IMG/VR virus record: IMGVR_UViG_2671180710_000023
Coordinates: 1-38,215 of that record
Strand: one strand, 5' to 3'
Source of the DNA: a virus
Lineage: Duplodnaviria; Heunggongvirae; Uroviricota; Caudoviricetes
Length of the DNA stretch: 38,215 bases
The position numbers and the translations under genes are program-made. Below the pieces are notes generated by a model that saw only the letters and a list, made by a program, of their open reading frames with translations, was not told where the DNA came from and did not search any database. This document shows, piece after piece, positions 24,605-36,669 of the stretch; the stretch's first letter is position 1, and each line of letters starts with the position of its first letter.

Positions 24605-25081
24605 ATGACGCACACACTGAATCCGGTCATCACTGTCACTGTGTCAGGTCCTGTGGGCAGCGGTAAAAGTTACGTACTGGCGCGGATAGAAGAGATGGTG
24701 AAACAGGAACTCGGAAACAGCGTCATTGTCGATGCTGCTGACGTGGAGAATGAGCGCCGTATGAATGGCGAAGATCTGACGACCTGGCAGAAGCCACGGG
24801 GTGGCACAGTGATCAGGCTAGAGGAATACACGGGACAGGGCCTGTTGTCATACGGCGAGGAGCGTATCTGTCGGACGAATGAGCTGCTGGATGTTATATG
24901 CCCCACGGGCCGGCAACCCTGGATACTGCCCGATGCACTGCATGCCACCATTGCGGCACTGATGACAGTTTACGATCAGGAGCTGCTCATGAAGGAGTTA
25001 CGTAAACTCACCGGTCAGCCAACAGAATGTTGTTCGTCTCCGAAGTACGGCAAACAGGAAAACGCCCCGGATAATCCTTAA
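24605..25081 (+). CDS. Small P-loop NTPase / nucleotide-kinase-like protein (accessory gene)
   Basis: Strong RBS (GAGGAG); Walker A GPVGSGKS at residues 15-22 and Walker-B-like VIVDAAD ~20 residues later; orientation opposite to flanking operons. Confidence 0.5.
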   Translation: MTHTLNPVITVTVSGPVGSGKSYVLARIEEMVKQELGNSVIVDAADVENERRMNGEDLTTWQKPRGGTVIRLEEYTGQGLLSYGEERICRTNELLDVICPTGRQPWILPDALHATIAALMTVYDQELLMKELRKLTGQPTECCSSPKYGKQENAPDNP

Positions 25082-25118: not shown

Positions 25119-25709
25119 CTAAAAAAAGAAGTGTATTATTGCCCAAACAGCTATAACGATGATTCCCAGCCCAAGAGCCGATTCTAACTTATCTTTGGCA
25201 GTCATTTTTACTGTTGTAGCGGGCGCAGGTAAGTCTTGCTGCTGTGGATTTTCTGTTAGTTGTTTACGAGAAGAAACATCGCCCCTGTTAGTTTGCTTCA
25301 TGTTGATTACAGATGCGTTATGGGCATTATCAGCAGCAATTGACTGAAGTTTTACAAAAGTTTTTGAATCTGTTTTAGCCAGAAGTAACCTATTTCCCGT
25401 AAACATTGCCTTAAAAGTGATAGTTTTTTTCGTCTTGTCCGCCGCACCAAGCAAACCTCCAATGACCAACCCTGCACCACCAAAGATTAATCCACCAAGC
25501 AAACCTGCGCCTGCCGCCTTACCTATACGGCTTTCCTCTTCACTATCCGCAAGTTCAATCGATAAAAGCTCTTCTTTCAGATTTAATACAATATTTTCAG
25601 GAAAGCCTTGTTTTGGTTTTTTGGCAAACACGATGGTACCGAACCCCATGCTTGCCCACCCTTTAGGAAAACTTCCTGCGATAACCTGAATCCCTGCCAT
25701 GTTCATCAC
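25119..25709 (-). CDS. Glycine-zipper membrane protein (repressor operon, distal gene)
   Basis: AAGGTGA RBS; GKAAGAGLLGGLIFGGAGLVIGGLLGAA glycine-zipper hydrophobic segment plus C-terminal TM (LGLGIIVIAVWAIIHFFF). Confidence 0.55.
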   Translation of the reverse strand: MMNMAGIQVIAGSFPKGWASMGFGTIVFAKKPKQGFPENIVLNLKEELLSIELADSEEESRIGKAAGAGLLGGLIFGGAGLVIGGLLGAADKTKKTITFKAMFTGNRLLLAKTDSKTFVKLQSIAADNAHNASVINMKQTNRGDVSSRKQLTENPQQQDLPAPATTVKMTAKDKLESALGLGIIVIAVWAIIHFFF

Positions 25710-25790
25710 CTTTTACATTAAAATTTCAGAACGCAGCATGATGCCGCCTTTGTCTTTTTTCTGATCCCATGGTAATTCAGCTGTTATTTT

Positions 25791-26777
25791 CTATTTAAGA
25801 ATAAAACGGTACTTACTGTCAGGAGTGCTTTGCTGATCAAGTAGCAGTGAACGACATGGAGCAGTCAAAACCCGAGCATAACTACCATCAGGGCTTATGT
25901 TAATGTAACAAACCTTGCCCTTAACACTATAATTTTCGGGGACGGATGCCTTTGCTGATACAGTAAATTTAAGGGTATGCCAGCCCGTTTTTTGCTTGTA
26001 GCTTGAAACCGAATGGAAATCATCTGAGTACTTATTTAACCCTGGAAACATGCTGCGCAGTGCGGGGATGGAATCTTCTATTATTTTATCGTTGGTTTTA
26101 ATGTTAAAAACGCTGGTTTCAGTAGAAGCTACTGCTTTGGCATTTCCCCATTTACCAGCGAACACAATCATTCCCACGAAAAATATTGCTACAAGAACTA
26201 ACACTCCCCCCAACACTACTACATGAGGCTTCCGGCTTCTGGTTGGTACAGTTGCGACTGATTTTGCACCGCTTTCCGATGGAGGTGATAGAGTTTTACT
26301 CTCATCACGAATATTCAGCAGATCATCAAAATAACCAAACACAGCCTGCAACTGCTCTTTGTCTAGGCCTTTAAGATGGGTTGTACCGAAATGCTTCAGA
26401 CAGTATCTGTCACGGTCAAGACGATACCCAGGGTCAGTAAGCGCCATTATTTTGCTGACCAGAAGATTACAGTCCTTCATATTCTGGATCTGTTGTGCAT
26501 ATCTCTGAAGGATCTCAACCGCACCATGATAATCAGCCGCAGTCATTTCATTAACTGTTTTGGTATTAAGTTTCGTGTGGATCGTCATCCATAGCTCGCG
26601 CTTACTTTCCCCCAGATCAACCAATTCATCCATCAATCTGTGTAAATCGCGTTTTTGCAGCAACGAAATTGGTTGCTGGGCCGAAGGAAGTATGTCAGCA
26701 GAATAGTTATGAATGGTAACATCACCGCTGACAACGTTACCCACATCCCCGTTAACTGTTTGCTTCTCTTTACTCAT
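25791..26777 (-). CDS. Single-pass membrane protein (repressor operon, translationally coupled to repressor)
   Basis: ATGA overlap with repressor stop; ~180-aa cytoplasmic N-domain, TM helix (VVVLGGVLVLVAIFFVGMIVFAG), ~120-aa C-domain; AT-rich codon usage unlike structural genes. Confidence 0.55.
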   Translation of the reverse strand: MSKEKQTVNGDVGNVVSGDVTIHNYSADILPSAQQPISLLQKRDLHRLMDELVDLGESKRELWMTIHTKLNTKTVNEMTAADYHGAVEILQRYAQQIQNMKDCNLLVSKIMALTDPGYRLDRDRYCLKHFGTTHLKGLDKEQLQAVFGYFDDLLNIRDESKTLSPPSESGAKSVATVPTRSRKPHVVVLGGVLVLVAIFFVGMIVFAGKWGNAKAVASTETSVFNIKTNDKIIEDSIPALRSMFPGLNKYSDDFHSVSSYKQKTGWHTLKFTVSAKASVPENYSVKGKVCYINISPDGSYARVLTAPCRSLLLDQQSTPDSKYRFILK

Positions 26778-27235
26778 CTTCTCTTGGTATTTTTGTTCAC
26801 TATTCCACCTGTTCCTATGGTTACGTTACCTTTGATAACATTCCCCAGAACATCTCCATGAATAACCTGTTCCGCCCGTTCTCTGGAGGAGCCAGTAGTC
26901 AAGGCCGACAAAACTGAACCTTTGACCTGTAATGGTGCCTGCCGGTAGTGCTGCAGTAACTCCATTTCATCACGTGATAAAGTTATACCTGATGACTCCC
27001 CGGTAAGAATGAACTGTACATTGGCCCCAATTCTTGCAAAGGCTGCAAGTAACTCACCTCCGGGAACAGCAACCCCTCGTTCATATTTCCCCCACATTTC
27101 TCTTGAAACGCCACAAAGGGCTGCTACTTCAGCCTGCTTGAGTGATAACCGCGAACGCTCAGCTTTGAACCGCGACGCGCAAAGAGAATCAAAATTCACA
27201 TAAACCTCATTGACAATGAGAACTATAGTTCTCAT
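26774..27235 (-). CDS. XRE-family HTH repressor (c-repressor analogue)
   Basis: HTH_3-like LSLKQAEVAALCGVSREMWGKYERGVAVPGGELLAAFARIGANVQFIL; divergent from Ner-like gene across operator-bearing promoter; true start may be GTG near 27199. Confidence 0.7.
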   Translation of the reverse strand: MRTIVLIVNEVYVNFDSLCASRFKAERSRLSLKQAEVAALCGVSREMWGKYERGVAVPGGELLAAFARIGANVQFILTGESSGITLSRDEMELLQHYRQAPLQVKGSVLSALTTGSSRERAEQVIHGDVLGNVIKGNVTIGTGGIVNKNTKRR

Positions 27236-27238
27236 AAT
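27210..27238 (+). promoter_or_regulatory. Early promoter (TTGACA-17-CATAAT) with embedded perfect palindromic operator TGAGAACTATAGTTCTCA (27217-27234)
   Basis: Consensus -35, 17-bp spacer, near-consensus -10 about 45 bp upstream of ner-like ATG; 7-4-7 perfect inverted repeat spans spacer and -10. Confidence 0.6.
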
Positions 27239-27285
27239 CTATCACATATAAAACAAACATCATTGCATCAACAAAGGAGACAACA

Positions 27286-27474
27286 ATGACTTCCGAACAA
27301 GTTAAAAATCTCTTCCGTCAGCGTGGTATCACGTTTACCCGCTGGGCCGAAGAACACGGCTACAGCCGCAATGAGGTCTATCGTGTTCTCAATGGACAGA
27401 CCAAAGCTCGTTACGGCAAAGCCCATGAAATTGCTGTAAAACTGGGATTAAAACCCACGTCAAATGCGGCATAA
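27286..27474 (+). CDS. Ner-like small DNA-binding protein (Cro analogue)
   Basis: 62 aa; AAAGGAGA RBS; pattern ITFTRWAEEHGYSRNEVYRVL...GKAHEIAVKLGLKP resembles Mu Ner/Nlp HTH; first gene of early operon. Confidence 0.6.
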   Translation: MTSEQVKNLFRQRGITFTRWAEEHGYSRNEVYRVLNGQTKARYGKAHEIAVKLGLKPTSNAA

Positions 27475-27835
27475 ATTTTCCACATATGCAACAGGTTATC
27501 ACATATTGCAAAAATGGAAATGTGACATGAGTAAAGTAAATATTTCCAGTTCTGGGACCCGCATCCTACGTGTACTCAAAGCTCTACGCGGTCATGCTCT
27601 GAACGGTGTTTCTAACGGTGAACTGGCATCAGCCCTGGGGGAGTCCCCGGCGAATATCAATCGAGCACTTAATACCCTTATTGAAGAGGGACTGGCCATG
27701 AAATTAGAGAACGGACGTTTCGCACCGGGAATCCAGTTACTACAGATCGCCATGGCTCACAGTCACGAGATGGCGCGTGCACAGGATCGTATTAACGAAA
27801 TCAACCAACGAGTTATTTCAGGTAGTCGTTTGTAA
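27464..27835 (+). CDS. Winged-HTH protein (IclR-N-terminal-like DNA-binding domain)
   Basis: GTRILRVLKALRGHALNGVSNGELASALGESPANINRALNTLIEEGLAM fits wHTH; start may be ATG 27464 (overlapping ner stop) or 27527. Confidence 0.5.
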   Translation: MRHKFSTYATGYHILQKWKCDMSKVNISSSGTRILRVLKALRGHALNGVSNGELASALGESPANINRALNTLIEEGLAMKLENGRFAPGIQLLQIAMAHSHEMARAQDRINEINQRVISGSRL

Positions 27836-27845
27836 GGAGTAATCA

Positions 27846-28760
27846 ATGGGACGCACCAAATCACCCGTTAACACTGAACTGAATGTTGAGGTTCCGCTGT
27901 CAGATAACATCAATGTCAATTTGAACGCTATGACACAGCATCGCATGGAAATTATGCAGCAGTTTGGTGATGGACTGCCTTATGAACGTGATCGCATTGT
28001 TCACGAAGCACGTTTTTATATGGCGCAGAGTGCTGAATCTATGCTGGAAGCGGGTAAGCGGCTGATCATCTTAAAAGAAAATGAGCCACACGGTGATTTT
28101 ACAAACATTTTAGAAAATGAACTCGGACTTGCACCACAAGTTGCTCGCCGCATGATGCAAGCCAGTATGAAGTTTTTGGGAGAAGGTGATGAGCCAACAA
28201 AACGCTCAACGTTGAGCGTTTTGGGGAAAGCCAAACTGTACGACCTGATGGTTCTGGATAATGAAGAACTTGATGAATTGGCCGACGGCGGCACAGTTGC
28301 CGGCCTGACGCTTGACGACGTTGATCGCATGTCAGTACGTGAATTGCGTCAGGCCCTGCGCGAAGCGCGCGAAACCAACACAGCACAACAGCGCGTACTC
28401 GCCGACAAAAATGAAAAAATAGACTCACTCTCCACCAGACTGGAGAAGAAATCCCGTATTCAGCCACCTGAGCCTGATGAAGAGGTGAAGAAACTGCGGG
28501 CGGAAGTGACCGCGTTAGCGGTTGAGGCGGAATCTGCCATCGCCGTTCGACTGTCCAGCGCTTTTGAGACACTGTGCGCATATTGTGCTGAAAACATGAT
28601 TGATACCCCCAGAGACTTCATGGCAGGCCTGGTCTGTCAACTGGAAAGCACAGCGCGTAGCCTGCGCTCCACATTTGACCTGCCGGACGAGCCAACAGGC
28701 GATGTCGCGCCTTCATGGCTGACTGAGCCGACGCCACAGATTAACGGGCTGGAGGCATAA
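27846..28760 (+). CDS. Hypothetical early protein (304 aa) between ner and transposase
   Basis: Strong RBS (AAGGAG); acidic, coiled-coil-rich; no catalytic motif recognised. Confidence 0.5.
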   Translation: MGRTKSPVNTELNVEVPLSDNINVNLNAMTQHRMEIMQQFGDGLPYERDRIVHEARFYMAQSAESMLEAGKRLIILKENEPHGDFTNILENELGLAPQVARRMMQASMKFLGEGDEPTKRSTLSVLGKAKLYDLMVLDNEELDELADGGTVAGLTLDDVDRMSVRELRQALREARETNTAQQRVLADKNEKIDSLSTRLEKKSRIQPPEPDEEVKKLRAEVTALAVEAESAIAVRLSSAFETLCAYCAENMIDTPRDFMAGLVCQLESTARSLRSTFDLPDEPTGDVAPSWLTEPTPQINGLEA

Positions 28761-28763
28761 CCA

Positions 28764-30533
28764 ATGAATGCTGCCCTGACTGAACGACTGGTTTATGTCG
28801 CCCGCGCGGCACGTGACGCGGGGCATGGTAAACGCGGTGCAATATACGACGCTGCCTGTGCTGAACTTGGCATGTCCCGCGCCACTCTGCTGCGCAGGCT
28901 GAAGGAGGTATCTGTGACTGATAAACGCAAAAAACGCGCCGATGCCGGGCGCAGCGCCCTGACCCGCGACGAAGCCGCGCTGATATCTGCCACACTACGT
29001 GAGGCCACCCGCAAGAACGGTAAGCGTCTCTATTCCATCGCGGATGCAGTGGAAACCCTGCGGGCTAACGGCTTTATCTCCGCAGGCAGAACAGATGAAA
29101 CCACCGGTGAGTTTTTCCCGTTGTCCGAAGATGCCATCAGTCGTGCCCTGCGTAACTATGGCCTGCACCCGGAACAACTGGATGCCCCTGCGCCGCATAC
29201 CGAAGTGGCCAGTCTGCATCCCAATCATGTCTGGCAGATTGACGCCTCACTCTGCACGCTTTACTACCTGAGCAATGGACATAAAGGGCTGCAGGTGATG
29301 GACAGCGCGAAGTTCTACAAGAACAAGCCCGCTAACCTTGCCCGTATCGCCAGTGACCGCGTGTGGAGTTACGAGATTACCGACCATGCCAGCGGCTGGA
29401 TTTACGTTGAGTATGTGACGGGCGCGGAATCAGGTGAGAACCTGTGTTCTGTGCTTATCAACGCCATGCAGGAGCGTGGCGGCGCAGACGTGCTGCACGG
29501 CGTGCCGAAAATACTCTATCTCGACCCCGGCTCGGCAAACACCGCGGGTATGACGAAAAACATGTGCCGCTCACTGGGCATCGACCTGATAGCGCACAAG
29601 CCGCATAACGCCCGCGCCACCGGACAGGTGGAAAAGGCGCGTGACATTATCGAACGCAAGCTGGAGCCGGGTCTGAAATTCCGGCCGGTTCACAGTCTGG
29701 AAGAACTCAACGCGCTGGCCGCGAAATGGCGCAGCCACTTTAACGCAACAGCTGTTCACAGCCGCCACGGTAAAACCCGCACGGATATCTGGCTGAAGAT
29801 TACTGCTGAGCAGCTGAAAAAAGCGCCTTCCGTTGAGGTATGCCGTGAACTGGCTGTGGCGACACCAGAACTCCGCAAAGTCACGCCAAAACTTCGTGTC
29901 TCGTTCCGGGGCACTGAATTTGACGTATCAACGGTACCGGGCGTACTGGTTGGTGAAAAACTGATGATTACCCGTAACCCGTGGCGCAGCGATGTGGCAC
30001 AGGTGGTTCTGACCGGTGAGGACGGCCACGAGACGTTCTTCCTGGTCGAAGAGGTCAGAAAGAACGAGTTTGGCTTTGCTGAAGGCGCGGCGGTATTTGG
30101 CGAAAGTTACAAAGCCCTGCCGGAAACACCGGCACAGACGGCGGCAAAAGAAACCGAAGCGCTGGTCACCGGTACAGACAACGCCGCAGATGCAGCTGCC
30201 GCACGCAAGGCGAAGGCGCTGCCGTTCGGCGGGCGGCTTGACCCGTATAAACATATTGATGACGCCACACTTCCGGCCTGTATACCGAAGCGCGGTCAGG
30301 TCTCTGATGTACGCAGACCGCGCACTGAACAACGTCCCATGACTCATGTGGAGGCCGCGAAAGCCCTGCGCGATAAGTTCAGCGCCGACGGCCTTACCTG
30401 GACGCCGGAACATTACCGCCAGTTAACGGCACAGTACCCGGACGGCGTACCGGAAGCCGCACTGGATGAAGTAGTGGCCACGCTGACCACGCCGGCCCGC
30501 AGCAGCGTTATCAGCATTGTTAACGGCAACTGA
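28764..30533 (+). CDS. DDE transposase (Mu A-like, rve/integrase-core family)
   Basis: 589 aa; HVWQIDAS and LYLDPGSANT blocks consistent with DDE catalytic core; followed by overlapping AAA+ B gene. Confidence 0.8.
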   Translation: MNAALTERLVYVARAARDAGHGKRGAIYDAACAELGMSRATLLRRLKEVSVTDKRKKRADAGRSALTRDEAALISATLREATRKNGKRLYSIADAVETLRANGFISAGRTDETTGEFFPLSEDAISRALRNYGLHPEQLDAPAPHTEVASLHPNHVWQIDASLCTLYYLSNGHKGLQVMDSAKFYKNKPANLARIASDRVWSYEITDHASGWIYVEYVTGAESGENLCSVLINAMQERGGADVLHGVPKILYLDPGSANTAGMTKNMCRSLGIDLIAHKPHNARATGQVEKARDIIERKLEPGLKFRPVHSLEELNALAAKWRSHFNATAVHSRHGKTRTDIWLKITAEQLKKAPSVEVCRELAVATPELRKVTPKLRVSFRGTEFDVSTVPGVLVGEKLMITRNPWRSDVAQVVLTGEDGHETFFLVEEVRKNEFGFAEGAAVFGESYKALPETPAQTAAKETEALVTGTDNAADAAAARKAKALPFGGRLDPYKHIDDATLPACIPKRGQVSDVRRPRTEQRPMTHVEAAKALRDKFSADGLTWTPEHYRQLTAQYPDGVPEAALDEVVATLTTPARSSVISIVNGN

Positions 30534-30543
30534 GGAGGGAAAC

Positions 30544-31710
30544 ATGCTGGTACTGAAGCAGCAACTGAAAGAGGCCCGTATTCCACAGGCGGTGGTGGCG
30601 AGAGCTGTCGATGTTTCTGAGGCCACGCTGGCCCAGATTGTGAATCATAACGCGTGGCCCCGCACCAGCCCCGGAGAAGTGCGCCGGCGTCTTGCGTCCT
30701 GGCTGGAAAGTCAGGGAATTGATACAGCGAAGAGTTTTGATGCTGTACAGGGCGCGGCCACGCCCCGTACAGCGGGTACCACAGATAAAACGAGCCTCAG
30801 TGAGGAAGAGAATATGTTACTCAAAAAACAGGTGTTATTTCCAGCAACCAAAAAAGCGTTTGGTCTTTTTCGTGACCCGTTCGCCGACGAAGCCATGCAG
30901 GGTTCTGATGATGTGTTCACCACACCAGACATTCGCTACGTGCGTGAGGCGTTGTACCAGACAGCCCGTCATGGTGGGTTTATGGCCGTCATCGGTGAGT
31001 CCGGTGCGGGTAAATCCACGCTGCGCCGCGACCTGACTGAACGTATTAACCGCGAGAATGCGCCAGTAATTGTTATTGAGCCATACATCATCGCTATGGA
31101 AGATAACGATGTGAAAGGGAAAACCCTGAAGGCAGCAGCTATTGCCGAAGCCATTATCAGTACCATCGCACCACTGGAAAGCATCAGACGCAGTCAGGAC
31201 GCCCGCTTTCGCCAGTTGCATCGCGTCCTGAAAGACAGCAGCCAGGCGGGGTTCAGCCACGTTCTGGTGATTGAGGAGGCCCACAGTCTGCCCATTCCGA
31301 CACTGAAACACCTCAAACGCTTTTTTGAGCTGGAGTCCGGTTTCAAAAAACTGCTGTCCATCGTGCTGATTGGCCAGCCGGAACTGGCGACAAAACTGTC
31401 TGAACGCAATATGGAAGTCCGTGAAGTCGTTCAGCGCTGTGAGGTGGTCGAACTTCTGCCTCTGGACAATAACCTTGAAGAATTTCTGACGTTCAAACTG
31501 CAACGGGCCGGTAAACAGCTGACGGACATTATGGACGCCAGCGCAGTGGATGCCATACGTGCCCGCCTGAGCAATCCGGGAAGTCACCGTAAAAATATGG
31601 TCAGCCTGCTGTATCCGCTGGCCGTCAGTAACCTGGTAATAGCCGCCATGAATCTGGCAGCTGAAATCGGGGTTCCACAGGTCAACGCTGACGTTGTCAA
31701 AGGGGTTTAA
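30544..31710 (+). CDS. Transposition ATPase (Mu B / TniB-like AAA+)
   Basis: ATG 30544 preceded by GAGGAGGG; Walker A GESGAGKST, Walker B VLVIEEAH; immediately after transposase. Confidence 0.8.
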   Translation: MLVLKQQLKEARIPQAVVARAVDVSEATLAQIVNHNAWPRTSPGEVRRRLASWLESQGIDTAKSFDAVQGAATPRTAGTTDKTSLSEEENMLLKKQVLFPATKKAFGLFRDPFADEAMQGSDDVFTTPDIRYVREALYQTARHGGFMAVIGESGAGKSTLRRDLTERINRENAPVIVIEPYIIAMEDNDVKGKTLKAAAIAEAIISTIAPLESIRRSQDARFRQLHRVLKDSSQAGFSHVLVIEEAHSLPIPTLKHLKRFFELESGFKKLLSIVLIGQPELATKLSERNMEVREVVQRCEVVELLPLDNNLEEFLTFKLQRAGKQLTDIMDASAVDAIRARLSNPGSHRKNMVSLLYPLAVSNLVIAAMNLAAEIGVPQVNADVVKGV

Positions 31711-36479: not shown

Positions 36480-36669
36480 CATCCTTTTTGTTACGGGTCA
36501 TGTTTCAGCAAACTCGATTCTAAGTTGCCAGGAAGGATGATTTCAATGCCCGACTTATCTATCGTATAGCGGAAAAGAATTTCAGTTCTGTTCACCAGAA
36601 CCCATGTTAACCCACTCCAATTCGTTATTTATCTCACGGATCCCCCTTCATTTATCTCATGTCTGATCA
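36480..36669. repeat. Right-end terminal region with repeated TTTCA-containing motifs (putative transposase-binding sites) ending ...TGATCA
   Basis: Recurrent CATGTTTCAG / GATTTCAATG / AATTTCAGTT / TTATTTATCTCA / TCATTTATCTCA motifs in the last ~190 bp before the host junction; Mu R-end sites contain TTTCA cores. Confidence 0.45.

Follow-up and report, generated by a model that had tools for sequence, protein, structure and literature searches.

In the BcepMu/B3-type prophage carried by the virus record IMGVR_UViG_2671180710_000023 (analysed over its full 38,215 nucleotides, hereafter the window), two early genes lie directly upstream of the gene for transposase A (TnpA), one encoding a 102-aa winged helix-turn-helix (wHTH) protein and the other a 304-aa protein of the DUF3102 family. 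Our analysis shows that both genes are conserved and syntenic across related transposable phages, that the DUF3102 gene contains a perfect palindrome whose arms covary among relatives, and that the bases of this palindrome correlate with particular residues of the protein encoded by the same gene. The palindrome and its covariation are described here for the first time. As the best overall explanation, we propose that the DUF3102 protein and its site form an adaptor or regulator element of the transposition module, a reading to which we give a probability of about one half. The features on which the argument draws are as follows.

27286-27474, + strand: ner-like gene, 62 aa, first gene of the early operon, BcepMu gp16 family.
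27527-27835, + strand: wHTH gene, 102 aa, with a predicted IclR/MarR-type winged helix and a C-terminal helix, no effector domain.
27846-28760, + strand: DUF3102 gene, 304 aa, acidic, with a predicted N-terminal helical domain containing a helix-turn-helix (HTH), a helical hairpin, a C-terminal helix and a tail.
28089-28178, + strand: predicted HTH codons of the DUF3102 gene, residues 82-111 (helices 82-93 and 97-111, turn LG at 93-94).
28198-28223: perfect 13+13-bp palindrome CAAAACGCTCAAC/GTTGAGCGTTTTG, within DUF3102 codons 118-127, in a low-confidence linker just after the HTH.
28336-28757, + strand: C-terminal half of the DUF3102 protein, with predicted helical hairpin 164-249, helix 256-276 and acidic tail.
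28764-30533, + strand: transposase A gene, 589 aa, rve DDE core at residues 152-282, phrog_310 match from profile position 129.
30544-31710, + strand: gene for transposition ATPase B (TnpB), AAA_22/ExeA-like, last gene of a conserved four-gene block and followed by Gam.

A preliminary description of this DNA had placed two open reading frames (ORFs) on the + strand between the ner-like gene and transposase A, at 27464-27835 (123 aa) and 27846-28760 (304 aa), and both are found there. It viewed them as an additional layer inserted into an interval that is empty in Mu, whose map runs c, ner, A, B. Mu is the wrong comparator. The window is an E. coli prophage of BcepMu-like (Bcepmuvirus) affiliation, of the BcepMu/B3 type rather than the Mu type: at the DNA level its early region is 93% identical to that of Escherichia phage PhiKM, a member of Bcepmuvirus, and its genes follow the order wHTH, DUF3102, rve-type TnpA (~590 aa) and AAA_22-type TnpB, with a BcepMu gp16-type ner upstream. 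The early operon diverges from an XRE repressor gene, and Gam and Mor lie farther downstream, as in the BcepMu/B3-type layout.

Conservation of the two genes was assessed in 240 loci anchored on this type of TnpA (49-100% identity) and drawn from genomes, viral contigs and metagenomes. The DUF3102 gene stands directly upstream of TnpA in 229 of the 231 loci with enough flanking sequence, the wHTH gene is present in 224 of 225, and the DUF3102 stop codon falls within ~50 nt of the TnpA start in 212 of all 240. This ~99% presence of both genes spans the beta- and gamma-proteobacteria, and the block wHTH-DUF3102-TnpA-TnpB is syntenic in seven phages: BcepMu, phiE255, B3, PM105, JBD25, phiSHP3 and PhiKM. 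The orthologues BcepMu gp12/gp10, phiE255 gp42/gp41 and B3 ORF14/ORF13 occur in the same order, immediately upstream of TnpA and TnpB, and are annotated as conserved hypothetical only, with no function or site described in the sources searched. The accessory slot that varies in this lineage is the interval from ner to the wHTH gene. Near-universal presence, synteny and an accessory slot located elsewhere lead us to conclude, with little room for doubt, that both are core early genes of the BcepMu/B3-type lineage rather than insertions or morons. The notion of an inserted layer is not supported, and the comparison of related transposable prophages that the preliminary description had recommended returned conservation and synteny. 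By its own account, broadly conserved core early genes with a defined replication or transposition role would speak against its view; the conservation is there, and the literature searched, which included BcepMu, B3 and Beetrevirus and did not cover the B3 genome paper, describes no function for the DUF3102 or wHTH genes. In PhiKM (L001 5921-6238) and ~11 of the 240 loci, an extra gene of ~105 aa, absent from the window phage, separates DUF3102 from TnpA by a gap of 300-350 nt, which makes this junction an occasional second accessory slot.

These distributions also bear on the idea that the prophage acquired the pair as accessory genes for counter-defence, anti-repression or target immunity. 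An early operon is a suitable position for such genes, the larger product is acidic, and D3112-like phages carry small ORFs in the ner-A interval, some of which act on the host. Morons, however, do not reach ~99% presence in related elements; presence is not patchy, the slot that does vary is the ner-wHTH interval, and DNA-binding folds are predicted for both proteins. On these grounds, with no scan of defence or anti-defence libraries made, we find an accessory origin scarcely credible. Among the roles guessed at in the preliminary description, that of a transposition regulator is plausible in view of the DNA-binding evidence and the coupling to TnpA presented below, whereas a counter-defence or anti-repressor moron is unlikely.

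The larger protein is, as first described, acidic and coiled-coil-like and is preceded by a strong ribosome-binding site (RBS): its isoelectric point is 4.72 (53 D+E against 35 K+R), its model contains a long helical hairpin, and AAGGAG lies 7 nt 5′ of the ATG. Residues 65-173 match PF11300 (28.5 bits, cut-off 24.4), as do 75 of 86 aligned homologues, and residues 1-302 align with positions 1-300 of the 302 in phrog_1748 (E 1.8e-140). The family is large, with >1,400 close homologues and 3,940 clusters at 50% identity, and a proteomics study of an E. coli strain detected orthologous DUF3102 and HTH proteins (PMC9927464). The AlphaFold2 (AF2) model is all-helical. A confident N-terminal helical domain (residues ~28-107, predicted local distance difference test score, pLDDT, 84-94) is followed by a linker at 113-125 of low confidence (pLDDT <50) and predicted disorder, a hairpin formed by helices 164-202 and 210-249, a helix at 256-276, and an acidic tail in which W291 is near-invariant. 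The predicted HTH has invariant residues L93, G94 and R102 and a recognition helix running from P97 to F110, in which P97, Q98 and R101 are the predicted specificity residues. The profile and structure searches that had been proposed gave IclR/MarR matches for the wHTH protein and PF11300 and phrog_1748 matches for its neighbour; searches of the PDB by sequence and profile gave no match for the 304-aa protein. Foldseek of the AF2 model against the PDB returned nothing with E <0.7, a model of the N-domain alone gave weaker matches to generic HTH structures with folliculin on top, and Pfam over the 86 homologues gave only DUF3102 and coiled-coil noise. Longer 'fused' homologues (482-545 aa) have no recognisable added domain, and NCBIfam held nothing useful for either protein.

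The palindrome lies 350 nt into the DUF3102 gene, with the TnpA start codon 540 nt farther downstream. Perfect 13+13 dyads are expected ~6e-4 times per 38 kb, and this one occurs once in the window. At the same position, relatives carry perfect dyads in which both arms are altered together, as in PhiKM (CCAAAACGCTCAGC/GCTGAGCGTTTTGG), phiE255 (..CGGACAGC/GCTGTCCG..), B3 (..CGGACAAC/GTTGTCCG..), BcepMu (TTCAAAAGCGGCGTT/AACGCCGCTTTTGAA) and many genomic loci. In the family I alignment 91.9% of cells are paired, and covariation is 0.456 against 0.162 in shuffled alignments (0/500 as high) and 0.04-0.10 when the register is slid. The corresponding dyad of family II (JBD25-like), in which ACGGT is invariant at the centre, is found in a different loop, just upstream of the HTH-coding part; here 81.5% of cells are paired and covariation is 0.442 against 0.139 (again 0/500). 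Across 223 loci, strong palindromes fall 126 times in DUF3102 genes, 14 times in the 1.8 kb of TnpA and once in a wHTH gene, and apart from the operators at the early promoter (pE, see below) these loci have no conserved palindrome in or just upstream of the wHTH gene. The peptides encoded under the dyad vary freely (KRSTLSVLG, SKAALTPLLK, TPNGSEL, SRDGHDF and others) while the dyad stays, which indicates that the nucleotide sequence is conserved and not the peptide.

An alternative is that the palindrome is a structural element and no protein operator, either a DNA cruciform or an RNA hairpin acting in pausing, attenuation or processing, with the DUF3102 protein binding elsewhere or not at all. 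The arrangement of A-tract, covarying GC-rich stem and T-tract resembles a bidirectional terminator, a stable 11-bp hairpin is predicted for the RNA (-20.7 kcal/mol, z -3.0), G-U cells outnumber A-C cells by 7 to 1 in the inner stem of family I, and the stem varies around a conserved centre. Yet the dyad symmetry continues through the centre with a spacer of 0-1 nt, which a hairpin loop does not need; many family II members lack a T-run, and family II has no wobble bias; Rfam gave no match; and a structural element offers no reason why recognition-helix residues should be the best predictors of stem bases, as described in the next paragraph. We regard a purely structural role as improbable. 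An intrinsic terminator, which calls for a GC-rich hairpin whose loop measures 3-8 nt and for T at five or more of the next 8 nt, was considered and rejected: the tail is TTTTGGGG, the T-run of 3-4 nt does not exceed the A-run (mean T downstream 3.9, mean A upstream 4.8), and the terminator scan made no call.

A candidate reader of the palindrome emerged from a mutual-information (MI) analysis of 66 non-redundant family I genes, in which all variable protein columns were compared with the half-site bases. Residue 101, the fifth position of the recognition helix, had the highest normalised MI with half-site positions 6-7 (0.88), exceeding even residue 120, which is itself encoded by those positions. 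Arginine at residue 101 goes with CG (16/16), glutamine with GC (34/35), and alanine, valine, histidine or threonine with GT or AT. Half-site position 8 is best predicted by residue 98, the second of the helix (normalised MI 0.93), and altogether the site bases track helix residues 1, 2 and 5 better than any other column. Two divergent subfamilies, EPH and the BcepMu-like CEH, share the residue 101 mapping. When changes were placed on a tree of the remaining protein sequence, 21 of the 25 inferred at residue 101 shared a branch with base changes, the highest value of any column, and columns physically between the helix and the site had much lower co-change scores. Family II provides a replicate, in which a helix residue tracks base -3 (R with C, E with G, others with A; normalised MI 0.92). 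The wHTH protein was rejected as the reader on the low values of its columns, 0.2-0.5, which served as a linkage and negative control. Positions 6-8 of one half-site are ~11-14 bp away from those of the other, which would suit the usual geometry of an HTH dimer. Taken together, the correlations make binding of the intragenic palindrome by the DUF3102 protein probable; R101 would then read a CAAAACG.. half-site and Q101 a CAAAAGCG.. half-site.

The two parts of the DUF3102 protein have evolved differently. In phages whose TnpA proteins are at least 90% identical, median identity is 92% for the wHTH protein, 72% for the DUF3102 N-domain and 94% for the C-domain, and the Spearman correlations with TnpA identity are 0.37, 0.26 and 0.62, respectively. 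BcepMu gp10 and phiE255 gp41 have N-domains and palindromes of different subfamilies joined to near-identical C-halves. The rapid change of the N-domain and the swapped palindromes suggest that the HTH and its site act as a swappable specificity or immunity module, and the tracking of TnpA by the C-half suggests a partner-like relation of this half to the transposition proteins. The genes themselves are closely coupled: TnpA starts 4 nt past the DUF3102 stop codon, with the GGAGG RBS of TnpA placed within DUF3102 coding sequence. The short TnpA of KS10 is a different one and likewise has a DUF3102-like gene, gp15, directly upstream. Two side observations concern the same gene: the comparison of phiE255 gp41 (L002) with BcepMu gp10 (L004) places a mosaic joint inside it, and PM105 has an N-domain of the BcepMu type, yet no strong dyad.

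All of the binding-site evidence applies equally to a pure autoregulator, that is, a DUF3102 dimer that acts on its intragenic operator solely as a roadblock or repressor and has no role in the transpososome. Such a protein would curb transcription from pE beyond the site, through the remainder of the DUF3102 gene and on into A and B, thereby exerting negative feedback on transposase dosage, and rapid diversification would amount to heteroimmunity between co-resident prophages. The site is placed appropriately, inside the transcribed region, with pE ~950 nt before it and A and B after it; up to three copies of the region occur per E. coli genome; and DUF3102 proteins are found beside Mor in non-transposable phage-plasmids. 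RNA-seq of the B3-like phage Fc02 showed that the pE operon is transcribed early and that its transcripts 'dwindle distally' along the operon, whose ORFs, except A, B, gemA and mor, were mostly left without an assigned function in that study. Autoregulation by itself does not explain why the C-half tracks TnpA, why the DUF3102 stop and the TnpA start are almost always coupled, or why a DUF3102 gene precedes an unrelated short TnpA in KS10, and outgroup DUF3102 genes are without the intragenic dyad. As a complete account it strikes us as a genuine but rather unlikely possibility.

An adaptor role would meet a conspicuous feature of these transposases. Phage transposases of the B3/Tn552 type do not have the enhancer-binding domain, as noted in PMC8705779. 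In agreement with this, no match to HTH_Tnp_Mu_1 (PF02316) was found in the wHTH protein, the DUF3102 protein or TnpA of the window. The 690-aa TnpA of D3112, used as a positive control, matched with 149.7 bits over residues 8-125, and D3112 is without a DUF3102 gene. Domain I-alpha of MuA and the internal activation sequence (IAS), or enhancer, of Mu and D108 likewise combine an internal phage-specific site with an HTH-type module of the transposition machinery. Mu and D108 are otherwise near-identical, and the I-alpha/operator region is their divergent, specificity-determining segment, a pattern paralleled by the fast DUF3102 N-domain. The differences are also clear, since the DUF3102 protein has no sequence homology to I-alpha, is a separate polypeptide, faces a single intragenic dyad in place of an operator cluster, and has no evident link to the repressor. 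Functional equivalence to the I-alpha/IAS pair is an analogy, and we use it in that sense.

With these considerations in mind, we suggest the following model. Transcription from pE would pass through the ner-like gene into wHTH, DUF3102, TnpA and TnpB. The DUF3102 protein, dimerised through its helical hairpin, would serve as a sequence-specific DNA-binding adaptor whose N-terminal HTH reads the phage-specific 26-bp palindrome in its own gene, and its conserved C-terminal part would contact TnpA or otherwise work with the transposition proteins encoded just downstream. Protein and site together would constitute an internal cis-acting nucleoprotein element of the transposition operon, a counterpart, acting in trans, of the I-alpha/enhancer pair that the short TnpA does not have. 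The element would mark DNA as 'self' for the transposase, with an effect on transposition, and would diversify quickly in the manner of an immunity determinant. The slowly evolving wHTH protein could belong to this module as well, as another DNA-binding subunit or as a regulator. That the element is enhancer-like and self-marking, and stands in for the I-alpha/IAS pair, is put forward only tentatively. Somewhat more doubtful is the specific version in which the Mu enhancer system has been split off into a separate protein, so that a DUF3102 dimer bound to the palindrome in its own reading frame recruits an I-alpha-less transposase through its C-half; in that version HTH and site would co-diversify, the intragenic position would keep them linked, and the linker sequence would be enslaved to the operator. 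Binding within a transcribed region could also create a roadblock and hence feedback on A and B expression, and the enhancer-like and roadblock readings are not mutually exclusive.

Two other systems invite comparison. ParB, Spo0J and KorB proteins use HTH domains to recognise palindromic parS or OB sites, and in B. subtilis a parS site lies inside spo0J. The DUF3102 gene contains a palindrome that covaries with the recognition helix; the adjacent genes are TnpA and TnpB, with no adjacent ParA gene. No Pfam ParBc or KorB match was obtained for the DUF3102 protein or its 86 homologues at E <=1, and the N-terminus is a helical bundle and not the ParB/Srx-like cytidine triphosphate (CTP)-binding domain found at the N-terminus of ParB and KorB. 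By analogy only, the Tn3-family TnpR/res system also has the gene for an HTH protein beside the transposase gene, and the TnpR binding site controls transposase expression. The DUF3102 protein differs from TnpR in having no serine-recombinase domain, and its site is intragenic rather than intergenic.

In addition to the predicted RNA fold, several observations weigh against the adaptor model. Around 30% of family members, PM105 among them, have a weak dyad or none at the position, and the intragenic dyad is absent from KS10 gp15 and from two plasmid-prophage DUF3102 genes; it is not a general property of DUF3102 genes. A search of the window and of almost the whole B3 genome, ends included, gave no further copies or half-sites, and a single site with none at the ends is permissive for an enhancer and proves nothing. 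The complementary distribution of DUF3102 and domain I-alpha involves a handful of lineages only. IncF phage-plasmids of Enterobacter and Citrobacter (L008, L009 5899-6630) encode a 243-aa DUF3102 protein beside a Mor-family activator; these elements are non-transposable and lack the intragenic palindrome, which implies that the DUF3102 domain is not tied to transposition by nature. Tight linkage and mosaic recombination could inflate the residue-base correlation, given that the helix codons lie 20-75 nt from the site, and the correlation could partly mirror protein-level coevolution with residue 120. Finally, the fold evidence for the DUF3102 protein is weak.

The transposition of BcepMu/B3-like phages, which are very common as prophages, is understood only by analogy with Mu even though the Mu enhancer-binding domain is absent. 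If the adaptor model is correct, DUF3102 gains a site-specific binding activity with a readable residue-to-base code and fills this gap in the module, a handle becomes available for engineering mini-B3 or mini-BcepMu transposition tools, and the gene provides a clean natural case in which an operator constrains coding sequence and evolves together with the protein encoded there. If the protein is an autoregulator and nothing else, the result is a tidy annotation and not a new mechanism.

For the smaller gene, the preliminary description was right about the location of the longest ORF (27464-27835, + strand, 123 aa) and about the winged helix, and probably wrong about the start. The ATG at 27464 falls within the last codons of ner; phrog_1368 aligns residues 22-121 of the 123-aa ORF with positions 1-100 of its 101, the RefSeq gene in a prophage of 99.5% identity measures 309 nt, and orthologues are 100-104 aa long. 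On these grounds translation most probably begins at ATG 27527 and yields 102 aa. The protein matches Pfam HTH_IclR (PF09339) with 28.3 bits (cut-off 22), and a profile search of the PDB recovered MarR and IclR wHTH domains, the matches to IclR, TtgV and KdgR having E values of 5e-5 to 1e-3. It thus has its winged helix in common with IclR/MarR regulators, with a score above the Pfam threshold and matches to solved structures. It differs from them in that it carries a single C-terminal helix in place of the IclR effector-binding domain or the MarR dimerisation helices. Pfam detected no second domain, the NCBIfam IclR-type equivalogs scored far under their cut-offs, and at 102 aa the protein is without the C-terminal effector-binding domain that characterises IclR members of ~250 aa.

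Upstream, the early operon has the following control features.

27210-27238, + strand: candidate early promoter pE, TTGACA-17-CATAAT, sigma-70-like, 11/12 consensus match.
27217-27236: operator-like perfect 10+10 palindrome ATGAGAACTA/TAGTTCTCAT, between the -35 and -10 hexamers of pE.

The 27217-27236 palindrome overlaps the start codon of the XRE repressor gene (26774-27235, - strand) and is probably an operator of the repressor or ner. Relatives have comparable but different palindromes at pE, for example TGCTCATAA/TTATGAGCA, which is consistent with heteroimmunity. The ner-like protein itself matches TIGR04111 (94.4 bits, cut-off 34) and phrog_925 (E 1e-32). An exact 10-nt repeat, TATCACATAT, occurs at 27240-27249 and 27497-27506, in the only two intergenic spacers of the segment, one copy upstream of ner and the other upstream of the wHTH gene. 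As a signal it was set aside, being at chance level (equalled in 34/100 shuffles) and possibly meaningless.

The early region was found in 634 of 5,426 complete E. coli genomes. One boundary of the prophage lies in the window.

36669/36670: prophage-host junction, where phage DNA terminates in ...CATGTCTGATCA and universal E. coli ptrA/recB DNA lies beyond.

The early-side end of the prophage is thus at 36669, followed by ptrA/recB, and the phage DNA ends there in CA, the terminus typical of TG...CA transposable phages. The opposite prophage end is outside the window, whose start falls within the tail-fibre region. On this tail side (19-2579, + strand), four back-to-back ORFs of ~145-170 aa with TTG or GTG starts, each ~10 nt past the preceding stop, are accompanied by a fifth of 205 aa, all five oriented opposite to the tail genes. 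Their E. coli matches are named 'phage tail protein (x3)' and are highly mosaic, and the ORFs may represent alternative tail-fibre or chaperone cassettes or a segment of host-range variation. A solitary gene at 24605-25081 (+ strand), in a moron-like position and oriented opposite to its neighbours, separates the lysis cassette from the immunity region and encodes a 158-aa P-loop protein that RefSeq names 'ABC transporter ATPase'. Two further genes, at 25119-25709 and 25791-26777 (both - strand), are co-oriented with the repressor gene and downstream of it. Their products, of 196 aa (phrog_12025) and 328 aa (phrog_10002) respectively, both have hydrophobic segments, and the 328-aa gene overlaps the repressor stop codon by 4 nt. 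The - strand genes from 25119 to 27235 resemble a lysogeny-expressed operon and are candidates for superinfection exclusion or defence.

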